From contig OZ025791.1 in NCBI GenBank assembly GCA_964019425.1, forward strand, positions 868,001-932,000: a DNA stretch of 64,000 nt, written 5' to 3'. Position 1 is the stretch's first letter. The number at the start of each line of letters is the position of its first letter. A model generated the notes under the pieces. That model ran no database searches. It was not told the origin of the DNA and saw only the letters and a program-made list of their open reading frames with translations. Shown piece after piece: positions 15,952-63,854 of this stretch. The stretch is from Flectonema sp. DT1601 (Eukaryota). A program made the position numbers and the translations under genes.

Positions 15952-16151
15952 NNNNNNNNNNNNNNNNNNNNNNNNNNNNNNNNNNNNNNNNNNNNNNNNN
16001 NNNNNNNNNNNNNNNNNNNNNNNNNNNNNNNNNNNNNNNNNNNNNNNNNNNNNNNNNNNNNNNNNNNNNNNNNNNNNNNNNNNNNNNNNNNNNNNNNNNN
16101 NNNNNNNNNNNNNNNNNNNNNNNNNNNNNNNNNNNNNNNNNNNNNNNNNNN
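15952..16151. other. Assembly gap (200 N)
   Basis: Run of N. Confidence 1.
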
Positions 16152-24100: not shown

Positions 24101-24952
24101 ATGCAAGTTTTTGTGACGTGTCCGGATTGGGGACTCTCCGCAGTGACAGTGACCGCTGGTGTCGATTCCGTTGTGAGCGACGTGTTGACGGCGGCGGCTG
24201 GGGAGTGGGATGTCGATCCGGAGGAAGTTGAACTCTCGTTTGCTGGTGATACCCTTTGCGAGACTGATCGGCTGGCAGATCATGGAGTGGTTGCAAACAG
24301 TGAGTTGGAAATGTGGAAGAAGCAGTTTAGGATATTCGGTAAATGTTGGTTTGTTGATGATACAAAACGGGAAAAGTTGCTTCTTTGGATCAGAGACCAC
24401 ATTACGGAGAACTTATATCTGGACACTCCCACATTCGCAAAAGATGGTTGCCTCACTGTTGACGGTGACCTGCTTCCTTTAGATGCCGAGCAGGTTGCTT
24501 TCCGCAATTCAAATTCCAACAGCACAGCCATGTCATCAGTTACTAGAGTTGCAAATTATTTCTTGAATTCCTATTCAAATATCACTGCACTTGACCTTTC
24601 AGGTCTTAGTAGCGTCACCACTATTGGTAATTATTTCTTGTCTTTCTGTTCACTCACCGCACTTGACCTTTCGGGTCTTAGTAGCGTCACCATTATTGGT
24701 CATAATTTCTTGGCTCACTGTTTCCAAATCACTTCTCTTGACCTTTCAGGTTTTAGTAGTGTCGCCTTTATTAATCATAGTTTCTTGTTTTATTGTTCAG
24801 AAATCACTTCTCTTGACCTTTCAAGTCTAAGTAGTGTCACGAGAATTGGAATGAATTTTCTCAGTGAATGCAAAGCTCTTGAATCTGTACAGTTACCTGA
24901 AAGTAATAGCGCTCTCTTTGAGAAGAGTGTGGAGACAGCGATAAGTAATTAA
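24101..24952 (+). CDS. Ubiquitin-like domain plus leucine-rich repeat protein
   Basis: VELSFAGDTL..TDRLADHGVVANSELEM is Ubl-like. Four to five ~22-23-aa repeats of type ITALDLSGLSSVTTIGNYFLS are also visible at DNA level. Confidence 0.85.
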   Translation: MQVFVTCPDWGLSAVTVTAGVDSVVSDVLTAAAGEWDVDPEEVELSFAGDTLCETDRLADHGVVANSELEMWKKQFRIFGKCWFVDDTKREKLLLWIRDHITENLYLDTPTFAKDGCLTVDGDLLPLDAEQVAFRNSNSNSTAMSSVTRVANYFLNSYSNITALDLSGLSSVTTIGNYFLSFCSLTALDLSGLSSVTIIGHNFLAHCFQITSLDLSGFSSVAFINHSFLFYCSEITSLDLSSLSSVTRIGMNFLSECKALESVQLPESNSALFEKSVETAISN

Positions 24953-33554: not shown

Positions 33555-36500
33555 ATGTCGTATCTCCCTTCCGTTCAACTCCCACCTGCAAAAGTACATC
33601 AGATGTACAAAGGACTATTCCCTTCAGACATATATTTTCTACAACACTGCGGTGTTAAATCATCAAAAGGAAGGGCAAAGAAACGGCTGTTAGTCATCTG
33701 TAAGAACTTTGCAGCTGTTGGGTACATGGAAAAAGACTCAGCGGTAGTTAAAGAAATGGTCAAACACCAAGAAATTGAAAAAGTAGTAATGCAAGAAGCG
33801 GATAAAAGAACCGGAATATTTCGTAAAGAAGAACAGACTTCTGTATTATTCAAAGTAAAGAAAGCAGCTGATGGAAGTCGAACAAAACCTGATCTCCTAC
33901 TTAACCTTGTATCAGACGGTACTAACATGGAGGAGTCTTCAGGAGCAAAGAACTTAGAAACTATACTAAAAGCTATCCATTCATCTCGTTATGATAGTGA
34001 GCTTACTGTTGAATGGCTTAAAAAGAATGACTCTAAAAATAAAATTACTGATCAAGCTGAGAGAAAGCCTCCACCAGGATATAATAAACCTGAATCAAAA
34101 TTATCTGATGTTTACGGTAGACAACCTTCTGAAGCTCCTGGTCAATCTCCAACTCAACAAGAACCAAGTGCTTCACCTCCTCCTGGTGTTGCTGAAGTTG
34201 TTTATTTCATAAGCGAAAAGAATGAAACGACCGGAAAATACGCATTCATGCCTGGCGTTGAACAGCAGGGAATGCCTGTTTGGGGAAGACCTACAGGAGA
34301 ACGTCTTTATGTATCAAACACAACTGGTGTTTGGGTCATTGGTACTACTGAAACAATGAACTCAGATGCTTCATGGGTACGTGCAGCATCACGTGAACAT
34401 GGAAAGCTTCCTTGGGAAATCTCAGCCTGGCAGGCTCATAAAGATGGAAAATGGTCGATGCAAATTAATACAATTTGTACAACAGATTCAGATCTAGCTG
34501 AAGCTCTTCATCTTCAGTCTTCAGTGACGGCTATCAGTTCTAAGTTAGATCAAATCCCAGTTACTTCTCATAATAAAGATCAAGTTCAGGTTGCCAAAAG
34601 AGATATCTCTGAACACGCACACCTCCTGCAACCAAAAAGAAAAGGAGAATCGTTTACAGGTATGGCTTGATATTCTACAAACAGATCACAGGCAATCTCC
34701 TTCTCAGTATGATGACTAGAACACATTAGTACAAATCACAGGGAGCTGATTCTCTTGAAGTAGATGAGAAATGTTCATAACTGACTTCTGTCTTCCCTTC
34801 ACCACTTCCATGAGTGGCGTTCTCTTCTTTGATCCTTTCCCCTCTTCACCTCACTGTCGAATGATGACTAGAACACATTAGTACAAATCACAGGGAGCTG
34901 ATTCTCTTGAAGTAGATGAGAAACGTTCATAACTGACTTCTGTCTTCCCTTCGCCACTTCCATGGGTGGCGTTCTCTTCTTTGATCCCTTTCCCTCTTCA
35001 CCTCGCTGTCGAATGATGACTAGAACACATTAGTACAAATCACAGGGAGCTGATTCTCTTGAAGTAGATGAGAAATGTTCATAACTGACTTCTGTCTTCC
35101 CTTCGCCACTTCCATGAGTGGATCTCTTCTTTGATCCTTTCCCCTCTTCACCTCACTGTCGAATGATGACTAGAACACATTAGTACAAATCACAGGGAGC
35201 TGATTCTCTTGAAGTAGATGAGAAATGTTCATAACTGACTTCTGTCTTCCCTTCACCACTTCCATGAGTGGATCTCTTCTTTGCTCCTTTCCCCTCTTCA
35301 CCTCACTGTTGAATGATGACTAGAACACATTAGTACAAATCACAGGGAGCTGATTCTCTTGAAGTAGATGAGAAATGTTCATAACTGACTTCTGTCTTCC
35401 CTTCACCACTTCCATGAGTGGTTCTCTTCTTTGATCCTTTCCCCTCTTCACCTCACTGTTGAATGATGACTAGAACACATTAGTACAAATCACAGGGAGC
35501 TGATTCTCTTGAAGTAGATGAGAAATGTTCATAACTGACTTCTATCCTCTCTTCGCCACTTCCATGGGTGGCGTTCTCTTCTTTGATCCTTTTCCCTCTT
35601 CACCTCACTGTTGAATGATGACTAGAACACATTAGTACAAATCACAGGGAGCTGATTCTCTTGAAGTAGATGAGAAACGTTCATAACTGACTTCTATCCT
35701 CTCTTCGCCACTTCCATGGGTGGCGTTCTCTTCTTTGATCCTTTTCCCTCTTCACCTCACTGTTGAATGATGACTAGAACACATTAGTACAAATCACAGG
35801 GAGCTGATTCTCTTGAAGTAGATGAGAAATGTTCATAACTGACTTCTGTCTTCCCTTCACCACTTCCATGAGTGGATCTCTTCTTTGCTCCTTTTCCCTC
35901 TTCACCTCACTGTTGAATGATGACTAGAACACATTAGTACAAATCACAGGGAGCTGATTCTCTTGAAGTAGATGAGAAACGTTCATAACTGACTTCTATC
36001 CTCTCTTCGCCACTTCCATGGGTGGCGTTCTCTTCTTTGATCCTTTTCCCTCTTCACCTCACTGTCGAATGATGACTAGAACACATTAGTACAAATCACA
36101 GGGAGCTGATTCTCTTGAAGTAGATGAGAAACGTTCATAACTGACTTCTGTCTTCCCTTCACCACTTCCATGAGTGGTTCTCTTCTTTGATCCTTTCCCC
36201 TCTTCACCTCACTGTCGAATGATGACTAGAACACATTAGTACAAATCACAGGGAGCTGATTCTCTTGAAGTAGATGAGAAACGTTCATAACTGACTTCTA
36301 TCCTCTCTTCGCCACTTCCATGGGTGGCGTTCTCTTCTTTGATCCTTTTCCCTCTTCACCTCACTGTTGAATGATGACTAGAACACATTAGTACAAATCA
36401 CAGGGAGCTGATTCTCTTGAAGTAGATGAGAAACGTTCATAACTGACTTCTATCCTCTCTTCGCCACTTCCATGGGTGGCGTTCTCTTCTTTGATCCTTT

Positions 36501-39500
36501 TCCCTCTTCACCTCACTGTTGAATGATGACTAGAACACATTAGTACAAATCACAGGGAGCTGATTCTCTTGAAGTAGATGAGAAATGTTCATAACTGACT
36601 TCTATCCTCTCTTCGCCACTTCCATGGGTGGCGTTCTCTTCTTTGATCCTTTTCCCTCTTCACCTCACTGTCGAATGATGACTAGAACACATTAGTACAA
36701 ATCACAGGGAGCTGATTCTCTTGAAGTAGATGAGAAATGTTCATAACTGACTTCTGTCTTCCCTTCACCACTTCCATGAGTGGTTCTCTTCTTTGATCCT
36801 TTCCCCTCTTCACCTCACTGTTGAATGATGACTAGAACACATTAGTACAAATCACAGGGAGCTGATTCTCTTGAAGTAGATGAGAAACGTTCATAACTGA
36901 CTTCTATCCTCTCTTCGCCACTTCCATGGGTGGCGTTCTCTTCTTTGATCCTTTTCCCTCTTCACCTCACTGTTGAATGATGACTAGAACACATTAGTAC
37001 AAATCACAGGGAGCTGATTCTCTTGAAGTAGATGAGAAACGTTCATAACTGACTTCTATCCTCTCTTCGCCACTTCCATGGGTGGCGTTCTCTTCTTTGA
37101 TCCTTTTCCCTCTTCACCTCACTGTTGAATGATGACTAGAACACATTAGTACAAATCACAGGGAGCTGATTCTCTTGAAGTAGATGAGAAACGTTCATAA
37201 CTGACTTCTGTCTTCCCTTCGCCACTTCCATGGGTGGCGTTCTCTTCTTTGATCCCTTTCCCTCTTCACCTCGCTGTCGAATGATGACTAGAACACATTA
37301 GTACAAATCACAGGGAGCTGATTCTCTTGAAGTAGATGAGAAATGTTCATAACTGACTTCTGTCTTCCCTTCGCCACTTCCATGAGTGGATCTCTTCTTT
37401 GATCCTTTCCCCTCTTCACCTCACTGTCGAATGATGACTAGAACACATTAGTACAAATCACAGGGAGCTGATTCTCTTGAAGTAGATGAGAAATGTTCAT
37501 AACTGACTTCTGTCTTCCCTTCACCACTTCCATGAGTGGATCTCTTCTTTGCTCCTTTCCCCTCTTCACCTCACTGTTGAATGATGACTAGAACACATTA
37601 GTACAAATCACAGGGAGCTGATTCTCTTGAAGTAGATGAGAAATGTTCATAACTGACTTCTGTCTTCCCTTCACCACTTCCATGAGTGGTTCTCTTCTTT
37701 GATCCTTTCCCCTCTTCACCTCACTGTTGAATGATGACTAGAACACATTAGTACAAATCACAGGGAGCTGATTCTCTTGAAGTAGATGAGAAATGTTCAT
37801 AACTGACTTCTATCCTCTCTTCGCCACTTCCATGGGTGGCGTTCTCTTCTTTGATCCTTTTCCCTCTTCACCTCACTGTTGAATGATGACTAGAACACAT
37901 TAGTACAAATCACAGGGAGCTGATTCTCTTGAAGTAGATGAGAAACGTTCATAACTGACTTCTATCCTCTCTTCGCCACTTCCATGGGTGGCGTTCTCTT
38001 CTTTGATCCTTTTCCCTCTTCACCTCACTGTTGAATGATGACTAGAACACATTAGTACAAATCACAGGGAGCTGATTCTCTTGAAGTAGATGAGAAATGT
38101 TCATAACTGACTTCTGTCTTCCCTTCACCACTTCCATGAGTGGATCTCTTCTTTGCTCCTTTTCCCTCTTCACCTCACTGTTGAATGATGACTAGAACAC
38201 ATTAGTACAAATCACAGGGAGCTGATTCTCTTGAAGTAGATGAGAAACGTTCATAACTGACTTCTATCCTCTCTTCGCCACTTCCATGGGTGGCGTTCTC
38301 TTCTTTGATCCTTTTCCCTCTTCACCTCACTGTCGAATGATGACTAGAACACATTAGTACAAATCACAGGGAGCTGATTCTCTTGAAGTAGATGAGAAAC
38401 GTTCATAACTGACTTCTGTCTTCCCTTCACCACTTCCATGAGTGGTTCTCTTCTTTGATCCTTTCCCCTCTTCACCTCACTGTCGAATGATGACTAGAAC
38501 ACATTAGTACAAATCACAGGGAGCTGATTCTCTTGAAGTAGATGAGAAACGTTCATAACTGACTTCTATCCTCTCTTCGCCACTTCCATGGGTGGCGTTC
38601 TCTTCTTTGATCCTTTTCCCTCTTCACCTCACTGTTGAATGATGACTAGAACACATTAGTACAAATCACAGGGAGCTGATTCTCTTGAAGTAGATGAGAA
38701 ACGTTCATAACTGACTTCTATCCTCTCTTCGCCACTTCCATGGGTGGCGTTCTCTTCTTTGATCCTTTTCCCTCTTCACCTCACTGTTGAATGATGACTA
38801 GAACACATTAGTACAAATCACAGGGAGCTGATTCTCTTGAAGTAGATGAGAAATGTTCATAACTGACTTCTATCCTCTCTTCGCCACTTCCATGGGTGGC
38901 GTTCTCTTCTTTGATCCTTTTCCCTCTTCACCTCACTGTCGAATGATGACTAGAACACATTAGTACAAATCACAGGGAGCTGATTCTCTTGAAGTAGATG
39001 AGAAATGTTCATAACTGACTTCTGTCTTCCCTTCACCACTTCCATGAGTGGTTCTCTTCTTTGATCCTTTCCCCTCTTCACCTCACTGTTGAATGATGAC
39101 TAGAACACATTAGTACAAATCACAGGGAGCTGATTCTCTTGAAGTAGATGAGAAACGTTCATAACTGACTTCTATCCTCTCTTCGCCACTTCCATGGGTG
39201 GCGTTCTCTTCTTTGATCCTTTTCCCTCTTCACCTCACTGTTGAATGATGACTAGAACACATTAGTACAAATCACAGGGAGCTGATTCTCTTGAAGTAGA
39301 TGAGAAACGTTCATAACTGACTTCTATCCTCTCTTCGCCACTTCCATGGGTGGCGTTCTCTTCTTTGATCCTTTTCCCTCTTCACCTCACTGTCGAATGA
39401 TGACTAGAACACATTAGTACAAATCACAGGGAGCTGATTCTCTTGAAGTAGATGAGAAACGTTCATAACTGACTTCTGTCTTCCCTTCACCACTTCCATG

Positions 39501-42500
39501 AGTGGTTCTCTTCTTTGATCCTTTCCCCTCTTCACCTCACTGTCGAATGATGACTAGAACACATTAGTACAAATCACAGGGAGCTGATTCTCTTGAAGTA
39601 GATGAGAAACGTTCATAACTGACTTCTATCCTCTCTTCGCCACTTCCATGGGTGGCGTTCTCTTCTTTGATCCTTTTCCCTCTTCACCTCACTGTTGAAT
39701 GATGACTAGAACACATTAGTACAAATCACAGGGAGCTGATTCTCTTGAAGTAGATGAGAAACGTTCATAACTGACTTCTATCCTCTCTTCGCCACTTCCA
39801 TGGGTGGCGTTCTCTTCTTTGATCCTTTTCCCTCTTCACCTCACTGTTGAATGATGACTAGAACACATTAGTACAAATCACAGGGAGCTGATTCTCTTGA
39901 AGTAGATGAGAAATGTTCATAACTGACTTCTATCCTCTCTTCGCCACTTCCATGGGTGGCGTTCTCTTCTTTGATCCTTTTCCCTCTTCACCTCACTGTC
40001 GAATGATGACTAGAACACATTAGTACAAATCACAGGGAGCTGATTCTCTTGAAGTAGATGAGAAACGTTCATAACTGACTTCTGTCTTCCCTTCACCACT
40101 TCCATGAGTGGTTCTCTTCTTTGATCCTTTCCCCTCTTCACCTCACTGTTGAATGATGACTAGAACACATTAGTACAAATCACAGGGAGCTGATTCTCTT
40201 GAAGTAGATGAGAAACGTTCATAACTGACTTCTATCCTCTCTTCGCCACTTCCATGGGTGGCGTTCTCTTCTTTGATCCTTTTCCCTCTTCACCTCACTG
40301 TCGAATGATGACTAGAACACATTAGTACAAATCACAGGGAGCTGATTCTCTTGAAGTAGATGAGAAACGTTCATAACTGACTTCTGTCTTCCCTTCACCA
40401 CTTCCATGAGTGGTTCTCTTCTTTGATCCTTTCCCCTCTTCACCTCACTGTTGAATGATGACTAGAACACATTAGTACAAATCACAGGGAGCTGATTCTC
40501 TTGAAGTAGATGAGAAACGTTCATAACTGACTTCTATCCTCTCTTCGCCACTTCCATGGGTGGCGTTCTCTTCTTTGATCCTTTTCCCTCTTCACCTCAC
40601 TGTCGAATGATGACTAGAACACATTAGTACAAATCACAGGGAGCTGATTCTCTTGAAGTAGATGAGAAATGTTCATAACTGACTTCTATCCTCTATTCGC
40701 CACTTCCATGGGTGGCGTTCTCTTCTTTGCTCCTTTTCCCTCTCCACCCCAATGTTATTATTGATGTGTATATTATAAAGCTTTCAATAATAAACTAATT
40801 CAGGTCTTGAGAAGAATGAGTTGGTTCAGTTAGTTCAGAGACTTCAGAGATACTTGGAAAGGATTGCTAGGCTAACTCAACAAACAAGTGATCCTGAAAA
40901 GACTCAATCGGTAACTCAACCAGTAAAGAACTACAGCACAATTACAACAACTCGCCCAGGTGATGAAGAAATCCCAAAAACCGACTCTCTTAGATGGTCG
41001 TGGACTATGCAATCACAACAATTCTCAAGAGATGGTGACAGTAGACTTTATTGTACTTTAAAATGTACAGTTATAACATCACTTAAGGCTCGTCTAGCAC
41101 CGTGTGCTGTGGCTATTACTGATAAGGCAATGTATCTTTGTAATCTAGTTGATGGAAAGGTTTGTAATTATGATTCTGCCATCTTTTATTTTCAAGTGAG
41201 TTCTATTTAAAATGATCAAATCAAACAGGTACTCCACAGAGAACTGATAACAAATTTCAAAGCAGCGTTGCTATTTACTGACAAGCGGTGTCTCGGATTG
41301 AGGATACAGTCATCAGCAAACTCACTTGAACTTTATATTCAAACAGATGAATTTTGGCAAGAAGAGGCTATTGTGACGAATCTTAGAATCCCAGAAAATA
41401 GTCAAATTAAACAAACTCTGGATACCTACATTCCAAAACAATCAACTGAATTACGACTAATGCTAGAACTTGACCCCAGGATAGTCGAAGACTTACATCA
41501 AGACCTTAGACTAAAAGATGGAGAGATCGAACGCTGTCAAAACCTCCTACAGGAGGAGCGAAAAAAATTTCAAAATGAAGTTGATGATGTTAAGAAGTCG
41601 GAGGCTGATAGAGCTTATATACGTTCTCAGGAATCCTCCACTGAGTTAGCGAAATTACGGCATGCTCGGTATGTTTGTTTTCAGGTTGCGTAGGATTATA
41701 TTATCAAAGGAAATAAATAAAAATAAACACAGCAACCTCTCAACTGTAATCATCGACGAGATGGAATCCCGAAACAACAAACACCAACTCGAGATAGTTG
41801 AACGTGAGCATATCCTTCATCAGTTTTTTAGAGAACTTCAAGGACAAGAGCAAAGATGGAGAGATTGGGGTGAACAAAGAGTAGCAGCAGAGAGGCACCA
41901 GTTAGTATTAGCATGTACTGCTACTGTTGAGAAAGCCAATAGGGCGAAGGCCGAAAGCGAAGAATTGGAAAAACGTGTTAACCTTTTGGGAAGAATCACT
42001 CACCCAATAGCTCAAATAGCATGCGGTGAGAGGATCATGTTAAAGGAGTCAGAGAAACGAGCATTGATAGAACGTGACTGGGGGGTCTTCTTTGTAGTTG
42101 CACAGCAACGGAAGACTCAACAATCTACAGATACTTGGGTTGAAATTCAGCAAAAGAATGAAATCTTGCAAAAGAAATATAATTCTCAAAATAAGAATCT
42201 CCACGATATTACCGACAAACACACAGAAGTATCATCAGGTTATCAAGATGCTACCAACCGTGTTGGTTCTTTATTACGAGCGAATAAAGTACTTCAGCAG
42301 TCATTAGGAAGTTGTCAGTTTCTTGATATTCACAGAGTTCGTATGGACAGTATGCTTCTTACTGAAGACACTAATAGAAGAGCTATTGAAGTACAAGCTG
42401 CGGTATCTTATGAACAGTCTGTCTTAAAACTTGTTAGTTATCTTCTAAGTGACGCAGGTCAGATGGGAGCTCCTCTTTTATCATCAATTCACTCTTATGC

Positions 42501-54408: not shown

Positions 54409-55611
54409 ATGGCCATCCAACGAAGTCACCTAGTTGATGACCAAGGAGTAATGAGCATAAAACGCAGACTAATATTATTCACATCAAACGTTACTATTGT
54501 TGTGGTATATTTAATAATCGGAGGCTACAGCATGAAAGCATTAGAACGACCAAACGAAGAAAACAGAAGAGAAGAACTAGCAACTTTATTTGACGACTTA
54601 GGCTTGAATCAAACACAAAGAGACCTTCTCATTGATTATGCAGTATGTGAATTTGATCATCGTGGAGAGCCCAAGTGGACTCTAACGGGGTCAATTTTCT
54701 ATTCGATGACAGTAATTACGACTATTGGATATGGAAGCTTTGCTCCTTCAACTTATAATGGGAAATCGTTTACTGTAATTTATGGATTCTTTGGTATCAG
54801 TATTATCGGTCAACTTCTTGCTTCTTGTGCTGGAATCCTAATAGGAATAGGAAAAGCTCTCATCCAAAGAGCCCTTCACAGAGATGAAGACTATATACCC
54901 AGAGACCCTTGGAAAGAATGGTCAAAGGTCTGGAAGCAGTATGTTACAGATGAGGGTGCCTCGATTGATAGTTTTTTACCTTTGATAGAAGCGATCACTG
55001 GCTCCCCAGTTCATGACGACGTTTTAATTACGCACATCAAGTCAGAAATTGAAGAAGGAGATAATGGTTTAATTCCTGTATCAGAATTGGCAAGAGGGGT
55101 CGCTTTATGGTTTCAGTCAGCCACAGCTGTACCTAAAAAGACGTCGTGGAGGTTTGCATCGGGAATCATTATTGCTTCTGCGTGTTGGATTCTTCTTTGG
55201 GGATTTGTTTTCTCTAAGATTGAAGGCTGGAAATACAGAGAATCGCTGTGGTTTAGCTTCATTACTTTATCAACGATTGGGTTTGGTGACTTCACTCCGG
55301 AAACAAAAGTTGGCAGAGCTCTATCATTCTTATTTATTATTCCTGGGCTTGGTCTTGGAGCCGCCTCTCTAGGTACTATTTGGGACCTGTTCGAATCTTA
55401 CAGATTTTGGTGCCTTCAAAACCTTATGAAGAGGGGATTAATATCTCGGAAGGTTCTCGAAGCTCATGATATCCCACTCGCATTCAAACCCAGAGGAAGG
55501 TCTTACAAGTTTATATATCCTAAGGCTGATAAGTCAAGCTCTGGAATGACCGAACCGTCTCTTATGACTCCCTTTGCAATTGGAAATGAAGAAGATCAAT
55601 TTAAACTCTGA
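54409..55611 (+). CDS. Two-pore-domain potassium channel (K2P-like)
   Basis: Two selectivity filters, TTIGYG and STIGFGD, with a 4-TM layout. Confidence 0.92.
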   Translation: MAIQRSHLVDDQGVMSIKRRLILFTSNVTIVVVYLIIGGYSMKALERPNEENRREELATLFDDLGLNQTQRDLLIDYAVCEFDHRGEPKWTLTGSIFYSMTVITTIGYGSFAPSTYNGKSFTVIYGFFGISIIGQLLASCAGILIGIGKALIQRALHRDEDYIPRDPWKEWSKVWKQYVTDEGASIDSFLPLIEAITGSPVHDDVLITHIKSEIEEGDNGLIPVSELARGVALWFQSATAVPKKTSWRFASGIIIASACWILLWGFVFSKIEGWKYRESLWFSFITLSTIGFGDFTPETKVGRALSFLFIIPGLGLGAASLGTIWDLFESYRFWCLQNLMKRGLISRKVLEAHDIPLAFKPRGRSYKFIYPKADKSSSGMTEPSLMTPFAIGNEEDQFKL

Positions 55612-58180
55612 AGATGTTCGTTAGTCACATTTTTTTACTTTTTTGACAATGAACCACCATATTGTGTCCTGCGGATCTGCTTTTTGTAATCAGGCTCCGC
55701 CTTTTATTATTTTTTTTTCAGTAAAAAAAAAGCAGTTAAGTTTAGTTTCGTTTTTTTTTTTTTTTTTTTTTGTTGTTATTTTAATTTTTGTTTTCCGATG
55801 ATAAGTCATTGTACGTGTTCAATAGGATACGTAAACCATAAAGTTAGTTTAAATACTTTACAGATCTGAAATAGAGTAATAAATAAGTGCCTCTTACAAT
55901 CGATACGGCATCGTATGGGGCTCAGGTGATTGGTTATTTTATTTCTTTTTGAATAATTGTTTCTCTCTCTTCCTCTGATGGTTTTCACCATCGAACCTTT
56001 TCAGAATACATTGGCGTGCGTTGCTCAGATGAGTAAAGCCACTGCCTGAAACGAATCCACAAAGAGATTTGTACTCGATGGTTGTGACTGTTTCTTTCTC
56101 TGGTAGTCCCCTAATTGAATTTATGGCTATTCCCCTTGGTTTATCACATCCGATTAAGTCATGATTATTTTAGTTTTTTGTTACTTGACCATATTTGCTT
56201 GTGGTCATTGCTTTCTATTTCTTTTAAAAAAATAAATAAAAAAAAGGATCTTTTTTCTCACCCTGTCTGCATTGGTTCAGATGGATTGACGAAAACACCC
56301 CTTTATTTATGTTACTATTTTTTGTTCCTCACTTTTATTTTTATTCTTTTTTTTTCTTTATTTTTTTTCTCGTAACGTAATCTTGTTGTTGGGGAATTTT
56401 TTTTTCTTTTTTTTTTTTTTTTTTTTAAAAGAAAGAAAAGGCAAATAAAAGAATGAAACAATGAAACAAATGCTCAATGACCTATGAAGATTGGACCAGT
56501 CATAAACACGTAGTTTGTGATGGTCTTAGTCTGTTAGCTTATATTAATACTTAGATTCGGAGTGAATTACAATCTGCAATCATAAAAAGGATAAACGTTG
56601 TTAGGTAGAGTGACATCACATAAGATCCTGTCTTGTGAAAAGAGTAGTGTGTACGCTCCGCAAACTTCAATTTTTTATTTTATTTTTTATTTTTATTTTT
56701 TTTTTTAATAATTTTTTTTTTTGTAATAAAGTTTTATTATCAATTTAATAGGTCCGGCGCAGTTATGACCTTAAACTGACTGTCATCTTGCCTGATCCTT
56801 TTGGTTTTCATTTCTTGCTGAGTGATATGGCTATGTGCTGCCCAATTTTTTGTGGTACATTTCTAAAGCTTTTCGGTAAGCCCGCAGTACAATTGTAATG
56901 CTTTGGACAACTGGGGGTGAACGATCCTCGGTACTGTTCCGGGGTTTTCTATTTTCTTTCGTGGAGTGTGGGTATATGGCACACATATGGTCGTATTATA
57001 AAGAAAGATGTATATGAAAGAAAGAAGATTTTTTATATTTTTCACCTTCCCCCCACTCCCAGATCATTTCTCTTTTATTTCCTTTAGTTGTTTACAACCT
57101 GTTAGCCTCTGGGCAAGGTGGAGGCTGGAAGTCGATCACTTCCAGCCAATACTATGAAACTACAATCTTCGCGATTGGGTCCTTACTGATGCGGGCTACC
57201 CAGACCCCTCGTAGTCATCAGTTTGTATTTTGCTAATACATCAAATGGAGAGTATTCTAACTAACTAAGTATTCGTTATTATTATTTTATATTTATACCT
57301 TGCCACTTATGGATGCTCCCAAAAAAATTGGGTGCTGGCGACGCATTTCTTATGTCTCGTGAGTGGCTTAGAAAGGATTACTTGGATTGTCTTTCTTCTT
57401 TAATCAGTTTTTTTTACCTTGCTGGGGGCATTTATGTCAACCCAGTGATGTGTAAAAACGCAGAAGAGAACAAAGCGACACACAGATATATTAAAGCAGC
57501 CATTTGAATATAAATTCTGGTGTATAATTGTTGTCCCTCCCAAACTTCCCCATTTGTTGTTTGCATTTTCAAGTGTCTCAAATAACAATATTATTGTTAG
57601 AAATGAACAGGTGCGTTGTAACATTGAAAAAAAAAAAAAAAAAAAAAAAAGTGGAAACGTAGCCTGGATTACCACCCTTTGGGAAGAAGGTAGGCTGTCC
57701 ACCGTATATGTAATTGATCATTACTTTTTTATTATTTCTTGATTATTGATACATGTCACTTATAAACTATTTATCCCTACTAAAGGGGTGTGTATTCGTG
57801 TTGCTTATTTAGGTACTCAAAACCTTTTTGTTATGTTATTTTTGTTTTGTTGTTATGTTCTTACTGCTGCTGTCCGATTTCAGATGTACAGTAAATCTTT
57901 ATTTTATAGAAGCTGTTCATTTTAACAGGAACAGAGAGAGCAAAAAACTGTAAGGGACCGGTCCAGACCACGACCGACGATGGAAGACACGACTCGGCAG
58001 CCACACCAGGGCCCGCTTCAGTGATCACCGCCGGCCAGAAGGAAGCCGAGACGCAGTCCCTGCCGGTCCCCCGTCCTAATTGATCCAACTTCTGGCCCAA
58101 CCGGAGGGATCGACCTGTCTACGGGATTGGAGTGTATTAATTACGACTACTTAATTGTTTACAGCAAACCCATAAACAAA

Positions 58181-61100
58181 ATGATCACCACGTCAGACGT
58201 TTCTTATATAGTAGCTGTCGGTGGATTGCTGTATGCTATGCAGAGACAGCAAATGGGTGAGGTATGTCCTTCGGTTACTTTATTATCAAAACTGAGGACA
58301 CTACCAAAAAAATTACTACCCACTGGACATGGCGGAACAATATCTTTTTTTCTCCCCCCGTTCTTATCTTGCTCATAAAACGGGAAATTATATATTAATT
58401 ATTTACAGGGCAATTTAAAGGTCGGACATTACTGACTTTTGCATTTTTGTGGAAAAAAAAAAAAAAAAAGTTTCTCCCAAAATCAAATAAAATAAATAAT
58501 AATAATAATAATAATGAAAAGACAATACCAACGTGGGTTAGTATCGAGAATTCAAAAGAGATGGAAATTACAAAATTTGCTTCATAAAATGAATACGTCT
58601 GAAGGAAAGAAAGAGTTAAACGAAACACTTGGTGTTGGATTGTGGTCAAGCGATCAAAACTCAGGGACTGTTCCACCAACAGCTCATCATAAGACTTATA
58701 AAATCCCTCCATTTGACTATACATATAACAGATTTGAAAAAAGTTGCTCCATAGGAATAGATCTCGGAACAAGCAACAGCTGCGTATCGTATCTGGACCC
58801 TGACTCAAATGAACCAATCATCGTACCTATTGAAGGTAAGAATACAGTCCCAACAGTTATTGGACTTGAAAACTACAAAACTAGATATTTTGGAAAGGAA
58901 GCATCGAAATACTCTGGTAAGGCCAATGACATGAGCGTCTGTTCTGGAAAAAGACTTCTGGGAAAGAATATATATGATCAGAATGTTCCAAAGGAAGTCT
59001 ACGAAGATGTAATTACTTTAACTCAGGGAGAAAAAGGAATAGCTGTCAGGTTCACGAGGATCAAAGAAAAAAATATTCACACATCAACAATCACTAAAGA
59101 CCGAATCGAAGGTATTACCACAATGGAGTTCCCTGTTGTTCATATCATCGCTATGTTCTTGAGATACATAAAAACACAATCTGAATTATCAATCGGCATG
59201 AATGTTAATTCTGCCTGCATATCTGTTCCAGCTCACTTCAATGCTGCCCAAAGGAAAGCAACTGAAGATGCTGCCATTATCGCAGGTATGGATGTCAAAG
59301 AGATTATTGACGAACCATCTGCTGCAGCATTAGCCTACAGAGAGTTAGTCGCTGAAGGAACTGCCAGTGGTATTAAAAGAATAGCTGTATTCGATCTAGG
59401 TGGTGGAACTTTTGATTTAGCAATCTTAGAAATTAACTACGATAGCGGAGTGTCAAGGATCCTATCAGCTGGGGGTGACGACACCCTTGGAGGTGATGAT
59501 TTCGATCGCCTTCTCATTGACTATTGGAATGATGAGCTCAAAGATCTCGAGTATGACAGAGATCTATCAATTACCTTCAGCAATAGAGTACGAGAAGAGG
59601 CAATTAAAGCGAAAATTAACCTCGACGAATATGAGGAAGTCAGAACCTCTATCGTCGTGAGGATAAATACCTACACAGCAAAAAAGGTTCCTCTCTCCAT
59701 CACGCGTTTTGAGTACGAACAGCTTCTGCAACCACTTATAGTAAAGTTATCGAAGTGTGTGGACGAGACGTTTAAAAATACATCAATAGAACCTGAAGAT
59801 GTGGATGAAGTACTTCTCGTGGGGGAGATGACGAGAACTCCAGCAGTTCAAAAGTACATTAAAAAATGTTTTAAGAAAGAACCGCTGATTTCATCAATTG
59901 CTACTCCAGGAACGATTGTATCTCTTGGAACTACATTGCGAATCAAACAACTAAATGCTGTCGCGTCAGGGGAATCAGTCAAAGGATTCGTTTATGATAT
60001 TAACAGTCCGCAATATGAACGTACTCTAAATGTCGTACAAAAGTCAATTTATAAATTTCATAAATTCTGGAAGGAAAGAAAAAACTCACCACGATTGAGA
60101 CCTGGAGAAGCCCAGAGCAAGAAGAAGCTGGAAAAGGGACTCTCAGATACAGACATTGAAGAGATGTCAAGAGAGGTTATTGACAATGAATTATACATGA
60201 GAAAGGTAGCTCTAATTAAAAAACTAAAAGCAGACTACGAAGATCTCCTCCTCAGGATAAGTGATTGGAAGGAACCCCGTCAAGGATACTACGATAGCGA
60301 ATTCGATGAACTTATCGAAATTGCGAAGTACTGGAGCTCTTTTGTTACAAAGCAAAATGACAGAGAAGAATACATGGCTCAGGCGTATTGGGAACTGAAG
60401 GCTTACTTTGATGAGCTCTCTGGTGCATCAGAAAAGACTTCTCTTGAAGAAATCGCTTCCGATCCAGAACTATTTCAAGACGTTGCTGAGACCAACGTCC
60501 GTTCGTATGCAAAAACAACAAACGTGTCAAGAGAAGAAGTAGAAGAAGAAGAAGAAGATGACATCATTGAGGAACCCGTTAGAACTTTCCAACGATAGTG
60601 AAGTAATGTACATGTCTAAGTTCTAACCATTCTCTACGGGGAATTGTTAGAAGAGAACTTTACTATGGATGAGAAATAAACAACTGGAGAAAAAAAAAGA
60701 AGGAAAAAAAAAAACGACTGAAAAAACGAAAAATTATGTTTTCCAACGGAAGGATGTGGACAGCATGAATATCTATTCGATGTTATTTCTAAAAAAAGAA
60801 AAAAGGAATCGTTCCATTTGCCTGTCACAGTGGCCTCTCTGAAAAAGGTTTTACACAAGTCGTAAGAGTACTTGGAATTGCTCATTTCCTTTTTAACAGC
60901 GAGTAAACAAACACAGAACTCGAAGATTGCCGTCCTCTTTGCGTCACTATTTTGGATAGCTGTTCGAGTAGCCAACATAGGGAGTTGGTCTTCTCTGGTA
61001 TGTTATTGCACCGTAATATCTTTTTTTTTATTAATAAACCCCCCTAAGGGATACCACCACACAGATGTATCACGTTGCCTTAATTCATGCAGTTTTTTTG

Positions 61101-61592
61101 GCGTTGGCCTTGTCTGCAGTGGTGAGGCTGTATCGCACTTGGGACATTCGATGGTTTATAGCAATGGTATGCTGTCTCGTAGCATTGAGTATTCCATTAG
61201 CTAGAAGTACTTACCATCAGTGTATAGATGATAAGATTCAACCCTTATTAAGTGATGTGGACCCCGCATTAGATGGTGATTCTGAACCAATTTGTCTAGC
61301 CGCAGAACTCGCAAGTACTTTCCGTCAGGAATGTATTGTCTCAACTCGCAACACCAATCCCATAGCTGAGTACATTAGTGAACTCTTCGATGCTGGTAGG
61401 GGTGTTGATCAGGGAAATAAGAAATTTGGGTTATTCAGACAAAAGTACCCCTGCATAGAAATCCTTCACAAATCTACGCACAGTAATTTTTCTGTAAATT
61501 TATTCGCAGTAGTAATTACAATAATATCAGTGGTCGTCACAATCGTTGGATTCGCAACGATTCCAACGACAACTGAAGTTAAAGATGCATAG
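58181..61592 (+). CDS. Predicted ~229-aa multipass membrane protein; exons 58181-58261, 60917-60997, 61065-61592 (first intron would contain the Hsp70-like gene)
   Basis: Donor GAG|GTATGT at 58262 and acceptor aaacaaacacAG at 60916 join in phase 0. Second intron 60998-61064 is also phase 0. Exons 2-3 are well supported; the exon 1 link is inferred. Confidence 0.55.
58514..60598 (+). CDS. Atypical Hsp70-family protein (nucleotide-binding domain, no recognisable SBD-beta)
   Basis: GIDLGTSNS, ISVPAHFNAAQRKATEDAA, IIDEPSAAALAY, VFDLGGGTFD, LGGDDFD, VLLVGEMTRTP. Confidence 0.9.
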   Translation: MKRQYQRGLVSRIQKRWKLQNLLHKMNTSEGKKELNETLGVGLWSSDQNSGTVPPTAHHKTYKIPPFDYTYNRFEKSCSIGIDLGTSNSCVSYLDPDSNEPIIVPIEGKNTVPTVIGLENYKTRYFGKEASKYSGKANDMSVCSGKRLLGKNIYDQNVPKEVYEDVITLTQGEKGIAVRFTRIKEKNIHTSTITKDRIEGITTMEFPVVHIIAMFLRYIKTQSELSIGMNVNSACISVPAHFNAAQRKATEDAAIIAGMDVKEIIDEPSAAALAYRELVAEGTASGIKRIAVFDLGGGTFDLAILEINYDSGVSRILSAGGDDTLGGDDFDRLLIDYWNDELKDLEYDRDLSITFSNRVREEAIKAKINLDEYEEVRTSIVVRINTYTAKKVPLSITRFEYEQLLQPLIVKLSKCVDETFKNTSIEPEDVDEVLLVGEMTRTPAVQKYIKKCFKKEPLISSIATPGTIVSLGTTLRIKQLNAVASGESVKGFVYDINSPQYERTLNVVQKSIYKFHKFWKERKNSPRLRPGEAQSKKKLEKGLSDTDIEEMSREVIDNELYMRKVALIKKLKADYEDLLLRISDWKEPRQGYYDSEFDELIEIAKYWSSFVTKQNDREEYMAQAYWELKAYFDELSGASEKTSLEEIASDPELFQDVAETNVRSYAKTTNVSREEVEEEEEDDIIEEPVRTFQR

Positions 61593-62345
61593 GAAGACAG
61601 CCTACACTAATTGCATTGTACTTGACTCTTAGACACGATCTCTCAGATTGGGACACCTAAATCGATTTTATCAATTTATCACATGTCTGTTTCTGATTTA
61701 GTGAAAGCATACTTTCTGTTGCTTCTTGTAATTTGGTTTGTGAATTAGAGATCTATTCACACTCATCGTGATGAGGAGAAATTAGTAAATTTCTTGTTAT
61801 GTGGATTGTGTGGATGACTGTAATCTTCGTTGGCGTTTCAGCTTGGGAAAAAAAAAAACTTTAAAAAAAAAAAAATATATCCACCACTGCCTCCTTAAAA
61901 TTCCTGCCAGTAAGAAAAGTCTAAAAATATGAAACGGAAAAAAAAAAAAAAACAATAAAAACACGGTTCTTTGAGAAATCTAACTCGTCAGCATGCATTT
62001 CATCGTGAGTTACGAAAGCAAAACACGCATTTGACCAATTTTGTATTTTCCAGGAATAGAGTTTTTTTATTATTATATTCTTTTTTTTAATATATTCAAA
62101 GTACAGTATTATTGTTTTATTTAAATTAATCGGAAAAGCTCCGATTCCACGAAAAAAAAAAAAAAAAAAAAAAAAAAGTTTTCCAAAATCTCCAAACTCA
62201 TTACAAAAAAACTTCTTATCTAGTCAGAACCACCACTCACTATGACACAAAATAATTCGGCGCGAGAGTGATTTAGAAATAATACATTACAGTAGTTATT
62301 ATAATCAATTAATATATTATTATATAATGTTATCTTTTCACAGTC

Positions 62346-63854
62346 ATGGAGGTTTACGCGGCAACCACCTTCTTGGGATGTAGGAGTTCAGCAAGCCCTG
62401 TTAGAAGGGTTCTTCGCAGTCCAGCACCTCCGTTATTTGTAGGCAACACCAGATTGAGGGAAGAAACGGAACGGGGTAAGGACGAAACTGCTGGATTTGG
62501 AAATCGTCGAATGGAAGTTGCGAAAAAAAGCAATCAAAAAGTACTACTATTTGGTTACTTTATAAAGCTGTGGGTGTATCAAGGTTGGAAAAGACGAGAG
62601 CGATCGAAGAGAAGCTCTAAGCCGATTGATCGTCAGAGCCCTTCTCCAGCGAGAACTATAACAACGACATCAACGGAATCACAAACAATTCCAATCCAGC
62701 AAACAGACAGTCCGATACTTCAGAATGATATAGCTAGATTAAAGGACACTCTTCGTTCAATAACTAAAGATCAAAATCTTATTCTAAATGAACGAGACGA
62801 CTTACTTGACACCATCAGTCAGCTTGGACACAAACTCGAACAGGTTCAATATTTCGTCACAGATAGACATCGCGGTATCAGCGGAACAAGAACATCTCAA
62901 TTACTATTAAAAAATACAACCAACCTAATAATAGCAAGGTTTTACAGACTTTGGATTCAGAGTAAAAATAACAAAAAAATAGCTGTTACCTTTACTGTTC
63001 CGAAGGAAGAAGTAAAAATAAAGGAAGTAAAAATTTCAACAGAAAAACACCCTCTACTGAGAAAGTATTTCGGGCTATTATCTTCTAAAATAAATAGAAG
63101 AAGACGTACGAAGGTACCATCAGCTGAAGATTGTTTTTTGTTGAAAAAGTTTTACGAAATGCTGCTTCAAAATAAAAAAAATAATAAAAAGAGGAAATCT
63201 CCTGAAATAGTGCCACAGGTTGTAAGTCCAAGTGGAACATTGCCTGTTGGTTATTCTGTCGAAGATTTTCAGAATTTGAGACTCATGGAAACAACTAAAT
63301 CATCTAAAGAAGAAATGTCTCAAAATAAAACTAAAGAAAAAGACTACGGTAACAGTTTCCTTGAACTACATGAGGGAATAAATTATGAAAGAATGGTCTG
63401 GTTTTGGTGGAGTAAGTGGACCCGTCATGTTGCTTGTAATCAGTTATCTAAGAAACACTCACTGGATGCTTTTAATATCAAAATACTTCGTACGTCTTAT
63501 CAGAGTCTGGTATCTTACGCGGGTTTTTGTTTACAAAAAAGATCGAAGACTCCTGTGGATGTGGCATCTCCGAAAACCCCTTCCTCGATATCACTATCGG
63601 CAGTCATTGGAGATACCAGTACGGAAGAAATGGCAACGCCTATTAGAGTATGTGTTTCTTTTTTTTTCCCCCACAGACGAACCGTTTTCTTTATTATGTC
63701 ATGATATCTATCTTCTTACTGTCTGCGATGGGCGACACACACGTTTTCTTTTATAAAGAGACTTGATAACAAGTATGAGAAAAAACAAGAAATTCTAAAA
63801 CAGGATACGAGCGACAAGGCCCCAGAAGTATCCAGCCCAGCACAATTTTTTTAG
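62346..63854 (+). CDS. Hypothetical basic/coiled-coil protein; exons 62346-63647, 63804-63854
   Basis: 452-aa ORF; phase-0 GTATGT..aaaacAG intron; recurrent short L..YF..L/W motifs. Confidence 0.65.

Follow-up and report, generated by a model that had tools for sequence, protein, structure and literature searches.

Parallel nested intronic genes, in which a whole protein gene lies in an intron of an unrelated host on the same strand, are known from animals such as Hormiphora californensis, fly and human, and Hormiphora californensis also uses spliced leader (SL) trans-splicing; a survey of 1,058 genomes reports nested genes to be largely absent from protists (PMC8527503). In trypanosomatids, a sister lineage of the group considered here, the introns of PAP1, RBP20 and DBP2B allow one locus to yield SL-exon 1-exon 2, SL-exon 2 and SL-intronic fragment-exon 2 molecules, the latter two isoforms existing in T. 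brucei and L. mexicana (PMC11613528). In Schistosoma mansoni, alternative SL trans-splicing uses internal acceptors and likewise competes with cis-splicing, and long introns can act there as outrons (PMC5832876). In Diplonema papillatum, which belongs to the same group as the organism studied here, transposon open reading frames (ORFs) lie inside long GT-AG introns (PMC10161547). Here we analyze a locus of the diplonemid Flectonema sp. DT1601, found in a 64,000-nt stretch of contig OZ025791.1 (positions 868,001 to 932,000, hereafter the window), where an Hsp70-like gene is, with high probability, nested on the same strand in the first intron of a membrane-protein gene (the host), the host splice junction itself being predicted from the DNA.

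The genome of D. papillatum is described as composed of unidirectional gene clusters, with introns in 41% of the genes, an SL on essentially all mRNAs, and a polycistronic processing that was deduced by its authors (PMC10161547), and the introns of Diplonemidae typically show GTATG donors and A- or CA-rich 3' ends (PMC12621601). In the window, all long ORFs are on the + strand, the introns start with GTATG and end with an A/C-rich CAG, and the two proteins studied have their closest relatives in diplonemids. Intron 1 of the host gene fits this canonical diplonemid GT-AG type (G/GTATG donor, A- or CA-rich 3' end with CAG).

Locus layout and joining of the host exons

The host gene starts with ATG 58181, followed by 27 open codons and the phase 0 donor GAG/GTATGT at 58262, this being the sole case in the window of a GTATG after an ATG and 27 open codons. 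The Hsp70-like ORF lies wholly inside the following intron, on the same strand as the host exons (Table 1). A preliminary description, made from the letters of the window, had already pointed out the orphan exon and its donor, the Hsp70-like ORF, the acceptor at 60916 and the ATG-less exon after it, and all these coordinates are exact. It had also joined the exons in phase 0, which is retained, with the addition of a second, 67-nt intron (60998-61064) that it did not list.

Evidence that the host exons are joined comes from the relative F. neradi. A protein search with exon 3 yielded two matches among 144 candidates, namely the window's own protein and a 177-aa protein of F. neradi, whose cluster holds a second isoform of 231 aa from the same Trinity gene (TRINITY_DN1422_c0_g1, where i2 is the 231-aa and i1 the 177-aa form). 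The difference, 54 aa, is exactly exon 1 plus exon 2: residue 55 of the long isoform is the exon-3 Met, while residues 1-27 and 28-54 match exons 1 and 2. When each segment is compared without gaps to every one of the 127,282 six-frame windows of 27 codons that the 64 kb contain, residues 1-27 score best at 58181 (score 43; next 27; mean -29, standard deviation 11) and residues 28-54 at 60917 (score 98; next 31). None of 100,000 shuffles of the exon-1 peptide reached its score. The ends of intron 1 are fixed by the register of this protein and, since the relative's mRNA joins three exons of which the first two are here 2,655 nt apart, the Hsp70-like ORF is placed in a host intron. The nesting put forward in the preliminary description is hence upheld by an orthologous, transcript-derived protein that carries the peptides of exons 1, 2 and 3 in register, and the presence of the exon-1 peptide in an orthologue, which it had proposed to check, is found in residues 1-27 of the 231-aa isoform at 41% identity. 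A separate downstream gene with its own SL and starting at 61065, which it had set against the nesting, is probably a second product of the host, both forms being present in the F. neradi transcriptome.

To judge from its intact ORF, its transcript-derived orthologues (40-51% identity in four diplonemid transcriptomes) and the different families involved, the inner gene is functional and unrelated to its host. A mobile-element reading of the inner ORF found no transposase or reverse-transcriptase domain, as only HSP70/MreB families pass the threshold, and the test for extra copies showed single-copy flanks within the window and no tandem arrays at the locus beyond A-rich runs. Rfam applied to 55600-62400 gave a single match, with E 0.34, far under its threshold. 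The gene call in ENA for this locus is the 175-aa short form only.

Table 1. Coordinates of the host gene, the nested ORF and the acceptors of the locus (positions in the window; T20 and A20, fractions of T and A in the 20 bases before the AG).
Feature	Position	Strand	Description
T-rich acceptor, AG ends 58164	58143..58164	+	predicted SL site of the long membrane-protein mRNA; T20 0.40, A20 0.30
Exon 1 of host gene	58181..58261	+	27 codons, one weakly hydrophobic helix; 41% identity, ungapped, to F. neradi residues 1-27
Intron 1 of host gene	58262..60916	+	2,655 nt, GTATGT...CACAG, phase 0; encloses the whole Hsp70-like gene
T-rich acceptor, AG ends 58408	58387..58408	+	predicted SL site of the Hsp70-like mRNA; T20 0.55
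Nested Hsp70-like ORF	58514..60598	+	intronless, 694 aa
T-rich acceptor, AG ends 60899	60878..60899	+	predicted SL site of the short membrane-protein mRNA; T20 0.55, A20 0.15
A/C-rich cis acceptor of intron 1, AG ends 60916	60895..60916	+	T20 0.05, A20 0.55
Exon 2	60917..60997	+	27 codons, one hydrophobic helix, ATG-less; 63% identity, ungapped, to F. neradi residues 28-54
Intron 2	60998..61064	+	67 nt, GTATGT...CACAG, phase 0; between exon 2 and exon 3
Exon 3	61065..61592	+	175 codons from ATG, the entire short-isoform ORF; 68% identity to the 177-aa F. neradi isoform

Upstream of the host, a two-pore-type potassium channel gene (54409-55611, Pfam Ion_trans_2) is followed by ca. 2.3 kb without a long ORF (55612-57900) and, after a T-rich AG at 57928, by a GC-rich island just before exon 1 (57929-58130; 63.5% GC over 57950-58130 against ca. 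38%). The island contains one frame of 57 codons that lacks an ATG and another of 14 codons that has one, is unique in the window, has no Rfam match and folds with a z of -1.3; it could be a relic exon, a small SL-spliced RNA or a regulatory element. Elsewhere in the window, 40 copies of a 152-bp unit, 96% alike, form a tandem array (34709-40756). A phase 1 donor (34660) precedes the array and an A-rich acceptor of matching phase, which ends at 40803, follows it, so that it probably sits within a 6.1-kb intron of a gene whose start is at 33555. Each unit has ATGATGA and CTGA motifs, which we take to resemble those of box C/D small nucleolar RNAs (snoRNAs), and the array has no match in Rfam. 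In the ORF at 24101-24952, which has an apparently ubiquitin-like start as judged by eye, a 75-bp unit is repeated 3.5 times and probably encodes leucine-rich repeats.

Splice acceptors and the proposed choice between routes

The acceptors of the window fall into two classes. Between nine acceptors of introns and 17 that precede first ATGs, all picked by eye elsewhere in the window, T20 is 0.21 versus 0.47 and A20 0.54 versus 0.27, respectively (p 0.0003 each). The contrast persists when two doubtful short introns are left out (p 0.0006 for T, 0.0002 for A), a reduced set in which the donors of two remaining introns are not pinned exactly. At the locus, 58164, 58408 and 60899 group with gene starts; 60916 groups with introns, as does 61064 on account of its low T. 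The first of these acceptors, whose composition is within the gene-start range, has the first ATG 17 nt 3' of it; 58408 is 147 nt from the start of intron 1 and 106 nt upstream of the Hsp70-like ATG. Exon 2 thus has two acceptors 17 nt apart, one T-rich and gene-start-like (60899) and the other A/C-rich and intron-like (60916). The latter ranks first among the 61 YAG sites of intron 1 and is the only one that keeps the frame with exon 1, as compared with 58408 and with 60899, which is out of frame for cis-splicing from that exon. A cis junction between exon 1 and the Hsp70-like frame was rejected, as exon 1 joined at 58408 would meet a stop after 8 codons. It is possible that A/C-rich and T-rich acceptors represent a cis versus trans code in diplonemids.

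Starting from the observed exon order, reading frames, acceptor classes and pair of F. neradi protein forms, we infer every splicing and polyadenylation event in Flectonema sp. DT1601 as part of a model, which we hold with moderate confidence, where two routes, cis-splicing and SL trans-splicing, exclude each other and compete on one polycistronic precursor. On the cis route the SL would be added at 58164, and the exon-1 donor would pass over the T-rich 58408 and 60899 to be spliced to the A/C-rich 60916; the output would be a 229-aa long membrane protein, the Hsp70-like ORF being lost with the intron. On the trans route SL addition at 58408, inside intron 1, would sever exon 1 and begin the Hsp70-like mRNA. 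SL trans-splicing in trypanosomes is coupled to upstream polyadenylation, and the Hsp70-like 3' end would similarly lie before exon 2, probably set by SL addition at 60899. This acceptor would in turn begin an SL-exon 2-exon 3 mRNA, giving the 175-aa short membrane protein from ATG 61065. The base composition before the AG would be the cue by which the spliceosome tells the acceptor type. The free space after the Hsp70-like stop is only 301 nt up to the next T-rich acceptor, 60899, and 3' untranslated regions (UTRs) of D. papillatum have a median of ca. 800 nt (PMC10161547); in a variant of the trans route, the Hsp70-like 3' UTR would run on through the host exons to a 3' end further downstream. 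The two-route model explains both host forms of F. neradi as well as the two kinds of AG at exon 2, and its SL-exon 2 and intra-intronic SL isoforms have a direct precedent in trypanosomatids (PMC11613528). From the two mechanisms offered in the preliminary description we therefore favor the competition of cis- and trans-splicing, and rank lower the production of the inner mRNA from the excised intron, for which no support was found.

The two proteins and the age of their linkage

The inner protein is an atypical, not a canonical, Hsp70. Its 694 aa match the Pfam HSP70 family (E 2.9e-77) over residues 80-492, corresponding to positions 2-384 of the 599 of the model, and its profile match to DnaK, with a probability of 100% over 370 columns, ends at residue 481. 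The nucleotide-binding domain (ca. 79-481) is actin-like, with phosphate-1 and phosphate-2 motifs present, and is followed, beyond the linker, by no substrate-binding beta-sandwich in either the profile match or the AlphaFold model. The latter is helical at 465-655, with a mean predicted local distance difference test score (pLDDT) of 65.7. These C-terminal helices have a weak profile match to the lid region of DnaK (probability 14.5%, E 0.0019), and the C-terminus, searched by sequence in the PDB, has no match with an E under 0.57.

Beyond the diplonemids the family extends to kinetoplastids, at ca. 29-30% identity, among them trypanosomatid 900-aa 'heat shock 70 protein-like' proteins (ca. 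29%). These and D. papillatum DIPPA_04664 (48% identity) show the same domain layout over the aligned part, and DIPPA_04664 is curated as a mitochondrial Hsp70 with a modest score of 0.626 (supplement of PMC12699882). The label HSP70.b (PMC4488524) is a lead only. The inner protein is likely mitochondrial, and probably acts there as a non-canonical Hsp70 partner or scaffold. A metagenome scan with a profile of its C-terminus gave 285 pattern matches and 0 confirmed, and a family-specific DNA pattern retrieved one locus, kinetoplastid-like and uninformative on nesting. This copy (L001:38-2293) is an intronless member of the family on a 2.6-kb contig, and differs from that of the window in that the next ORF, within 100 bp, is by eye unlike the membrane protein. 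In another orthologue (P0012) similarity is lost abruptly after the nucleotide-binding domain, as if that species had an intron inside the inner gene; the copy of the window is intronless.

Concerning the host protein, exon 3 encodes two hydrophobic helices, a cysteine-containing helical domain and a C-terminal hydrophobic helix, with no Pfam family. Its core is common to Perkinsus and dinoflagellate proteins, some with a Bap31-like N-terminus. The transmembrane region of Bap31 has no match in the five diplonemid-type proteins scanned, and matches 4 of 10 longer dinoflagellate-type relatives (best E 3.1e-05); the profile match of such relatives to diplonemid proteins covers only residues 81-223 of the F. 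neradi protein. The structural model (pLDDT 69) found no Foldseek match at E <= 0.001, and a fold search yielded generic helical bundles only (best Z 10.1, root-mean-square deviation 2.8, 101 aligned), so that no family is excluded. No functional link between the Hsp70-like and the membrane-protein genes was found.

The linkage of the two genes is old, because in D. ambulator the Hsp70-like protein (P023315) and a short membrane ORF (P023313) are isoforms i3 and i1 of one Trinity gene, TRINITY_DN3874_c0_g1. Trinity groups transcripts with common sequence, and D. ambulator hence shows overlap or adjacency, not nesting. Identities to the window are 48% for the Hsp70-like orthologue and 36% (E 3.4e-16) for the best membrane-protein homologue. 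The latter is a short form that aligns from residue 60 of a 262-aa long form of D. japonicum, which has two extra N-terminal hydrophobic helices. A profile search for further host homologues returned only four already known proteins among 7,998 scored candidates, with neither the D. ambulator entry P023314 nor a D. papillatum host orthologue among the four. No coordinates of DIPPA_04664 or of the genes beside it were found in the D. papillatum supplements. Finally, for two ENA proteins, one from each family, the longest contig on record has an identical length, 932,527 bp, which does not establish adjacency.

Alternatives and comparison with known systems

Several points weigh against the nesting and its proposed consequences. 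The junction, SL and poly(A) sites of Flectonema sp. DT1601 are predictions from DNA, and the acceptor sets were picked by eye on the same basis, with ranges that overlap. The ends of intron 1 show no special long-range pairing, since the value obtained, -53.8 kcal/mol, is equalled or surpassed in 11 of 84 and in 48 of 157 intergenic controls. The F. neradi evidence consists of protein sequences and does not establish nesting in F. neradi itself; its 177-aa isoform may come from an assembly that lacks the 5' end although it is labelled complete, and an F. neradi Hsp70-like protein is absent among the 120 matches listed of 7,912. The common sequence that groups the D. ambulator transcripts may come from overlapping UTRs or precursor reads, and in D. 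japonicum the Hsp70-like and membrane ORFs are in different Trinity genes. The membrane proteins of these two species are putative orthologues, only 31-36% identical to those of the window or F. neradi, and their N-terminal helices have no significant similarity to exons 1-2.

If the genes are nested, transcription of the inner one might still begin independently, within the first 146 nt of intron 1, giving separate precursors and no competition. Intronic promoters feeding alternative SL sites are reported in C. elegans, and some introns of Schistosoma are predicted to contain them (PMC5832876); polycistronic transcription in diplonemids is deduced from gene order rather than mapped. We nevertheless find this unlikely, as just 147 nt lie between the intron start and the inner acceptor, the long ORFs of the window share one strand as in polycistronic clusters, and the host precursor would still hold the 58408 acceptor and must ignore it. 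Somewhat less probable is that both full products arise from one precursor, the Hsp70-like mRNA being made from the excised 2.6-kb intron by SL addition at 58408 and polyadenylation. The intron does hold the acceptor, the full ORF, ca. 300 nt of 3' sequence and the T-rich AG at 60899 in its last 20 nt, and a second cargo-bearing long intron, that with the 40 snoRNA-like repeats (34660-40803), seems present in the window. Against this, co-transcriptional SL addition at 58408 would normally precede the synthesis of an acceptor 2.5 kb downstream, the short isoforms of F. neradi and D. ambulator are left unexplained, and no precedent was found in literature searches.

Exons 1 and 2 might be joined between two precursors by intermolecular splicing, or the cis route be a minor leak, with little competition and a dominant short form, and in many family members the start indeed lies close to the exon-3 Met (P0126, P0132) or just one helix precedes the domain. 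The length and sequence of exon 1 are nonetheless conserved between Flectonema sp. DT1601 and F. neradi and the D. japonicum long form has two extra helices, which together suggest selection on the long protein; we hold intermolecular or leaky joining to be improbable, slightly more so than the excised intron. The least probable possibility, to which we give little weight, is that there is no nesting: the Hsp70-like gene would have come to lie between the exons through an assembly error or a rearranged copy, or else exon 1 would be a stranded relic. The locus comes from a single assembly, yet it is gap-free (the sole N run of the window is 15952-16151), neither exon 1 nor the flanks have a second copy in the window, the frame, donor and upstream acceptor of exon 1 are all intact, and transcripts of D. 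ambulator connect the Hsp70-like and the membrane-protein gene.

Beyond the competition of the two routes, a broader proposal can be made tentatively: diplonemids would use a post-transcriptional gene switch, in which an intron that encloses a whole conserved gene of a polycistronic unit lets the choice between cis and SL splicing fix the proportions of two unrelated proteins and those of the two membrane isoforms. Two acceptor 'dialects', A/C-rich for cis and T-rich for SL, would encode that choice, the arrangement would be shared throughout Diplonemidae, and loci of this kind would systematically escape annotation pipelines. Taken together these elements are possible rather than probable. 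Euglenozoans are thought to regulate their genes mainly post-transcriptionally, and one spliceosome has to discriminate cis from SL acceptors in an intron-rich polycistronic genome. The locus combines, on one precursor, a strong donor with an A/C-rich acceptor and two T-rich acceptors that are skipped, and has three distinguishable protein outputs; it would offer a natural reporter for the cis/SL choice and for the way in which trans-splicing and polyadenylation are coupled. Genetic work is feasible in D. papillatum (PMC8611851). The gene-model error to expect is that only the short host form is called, as in ENA.

Literature searches retrieved no nested protein gene in Euglenozoa, with Additional file 1 of PMC10161547, which may bear on novelty, outside their coverage. 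In that genome paper on D. papillatum the word 'nested' appears once, in a phylogenetic sense, and it is absent from seven supplements and from the diplonemid intron paper. Same-strand nesting and cis/trans competition are each known elsewhere; what did not appear in the literature searched is their combination, with a conserved cellular gene nested in a coding intron of a probably polycistronic unit.

The inner gene of an animal pair can have its own promoter, whereas the present cluster is probably one polycistronic transcript; moreover, the host intron here interrupts coding sequence, and a truncated host isoform is a likely by-product. Protists have been reported to lack nested genes almost entirely, and the locus also provides a counter-example to this. 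For the introns of PAP1, RBP20 and DBP2B, the accessible text of the report mentions no inner protein-coding gene (PMC11613528); in contrast, the SL site predicted inside the Flectonema intron would start a conserved 694-aa protein, and exon 2 has separate AGs of cis and trans type. The products in Schistosoma mansoni are shortened isoforms of the host and not a second, unrelated gene, the word 'nested' occurring 0 times in the text of that report at hand (PMC5832876). Finally, compared with the transposon-bearing introns of D. papillatum, the cargo is here a cellular gene conserved across diplonemids and kinetoplastids.

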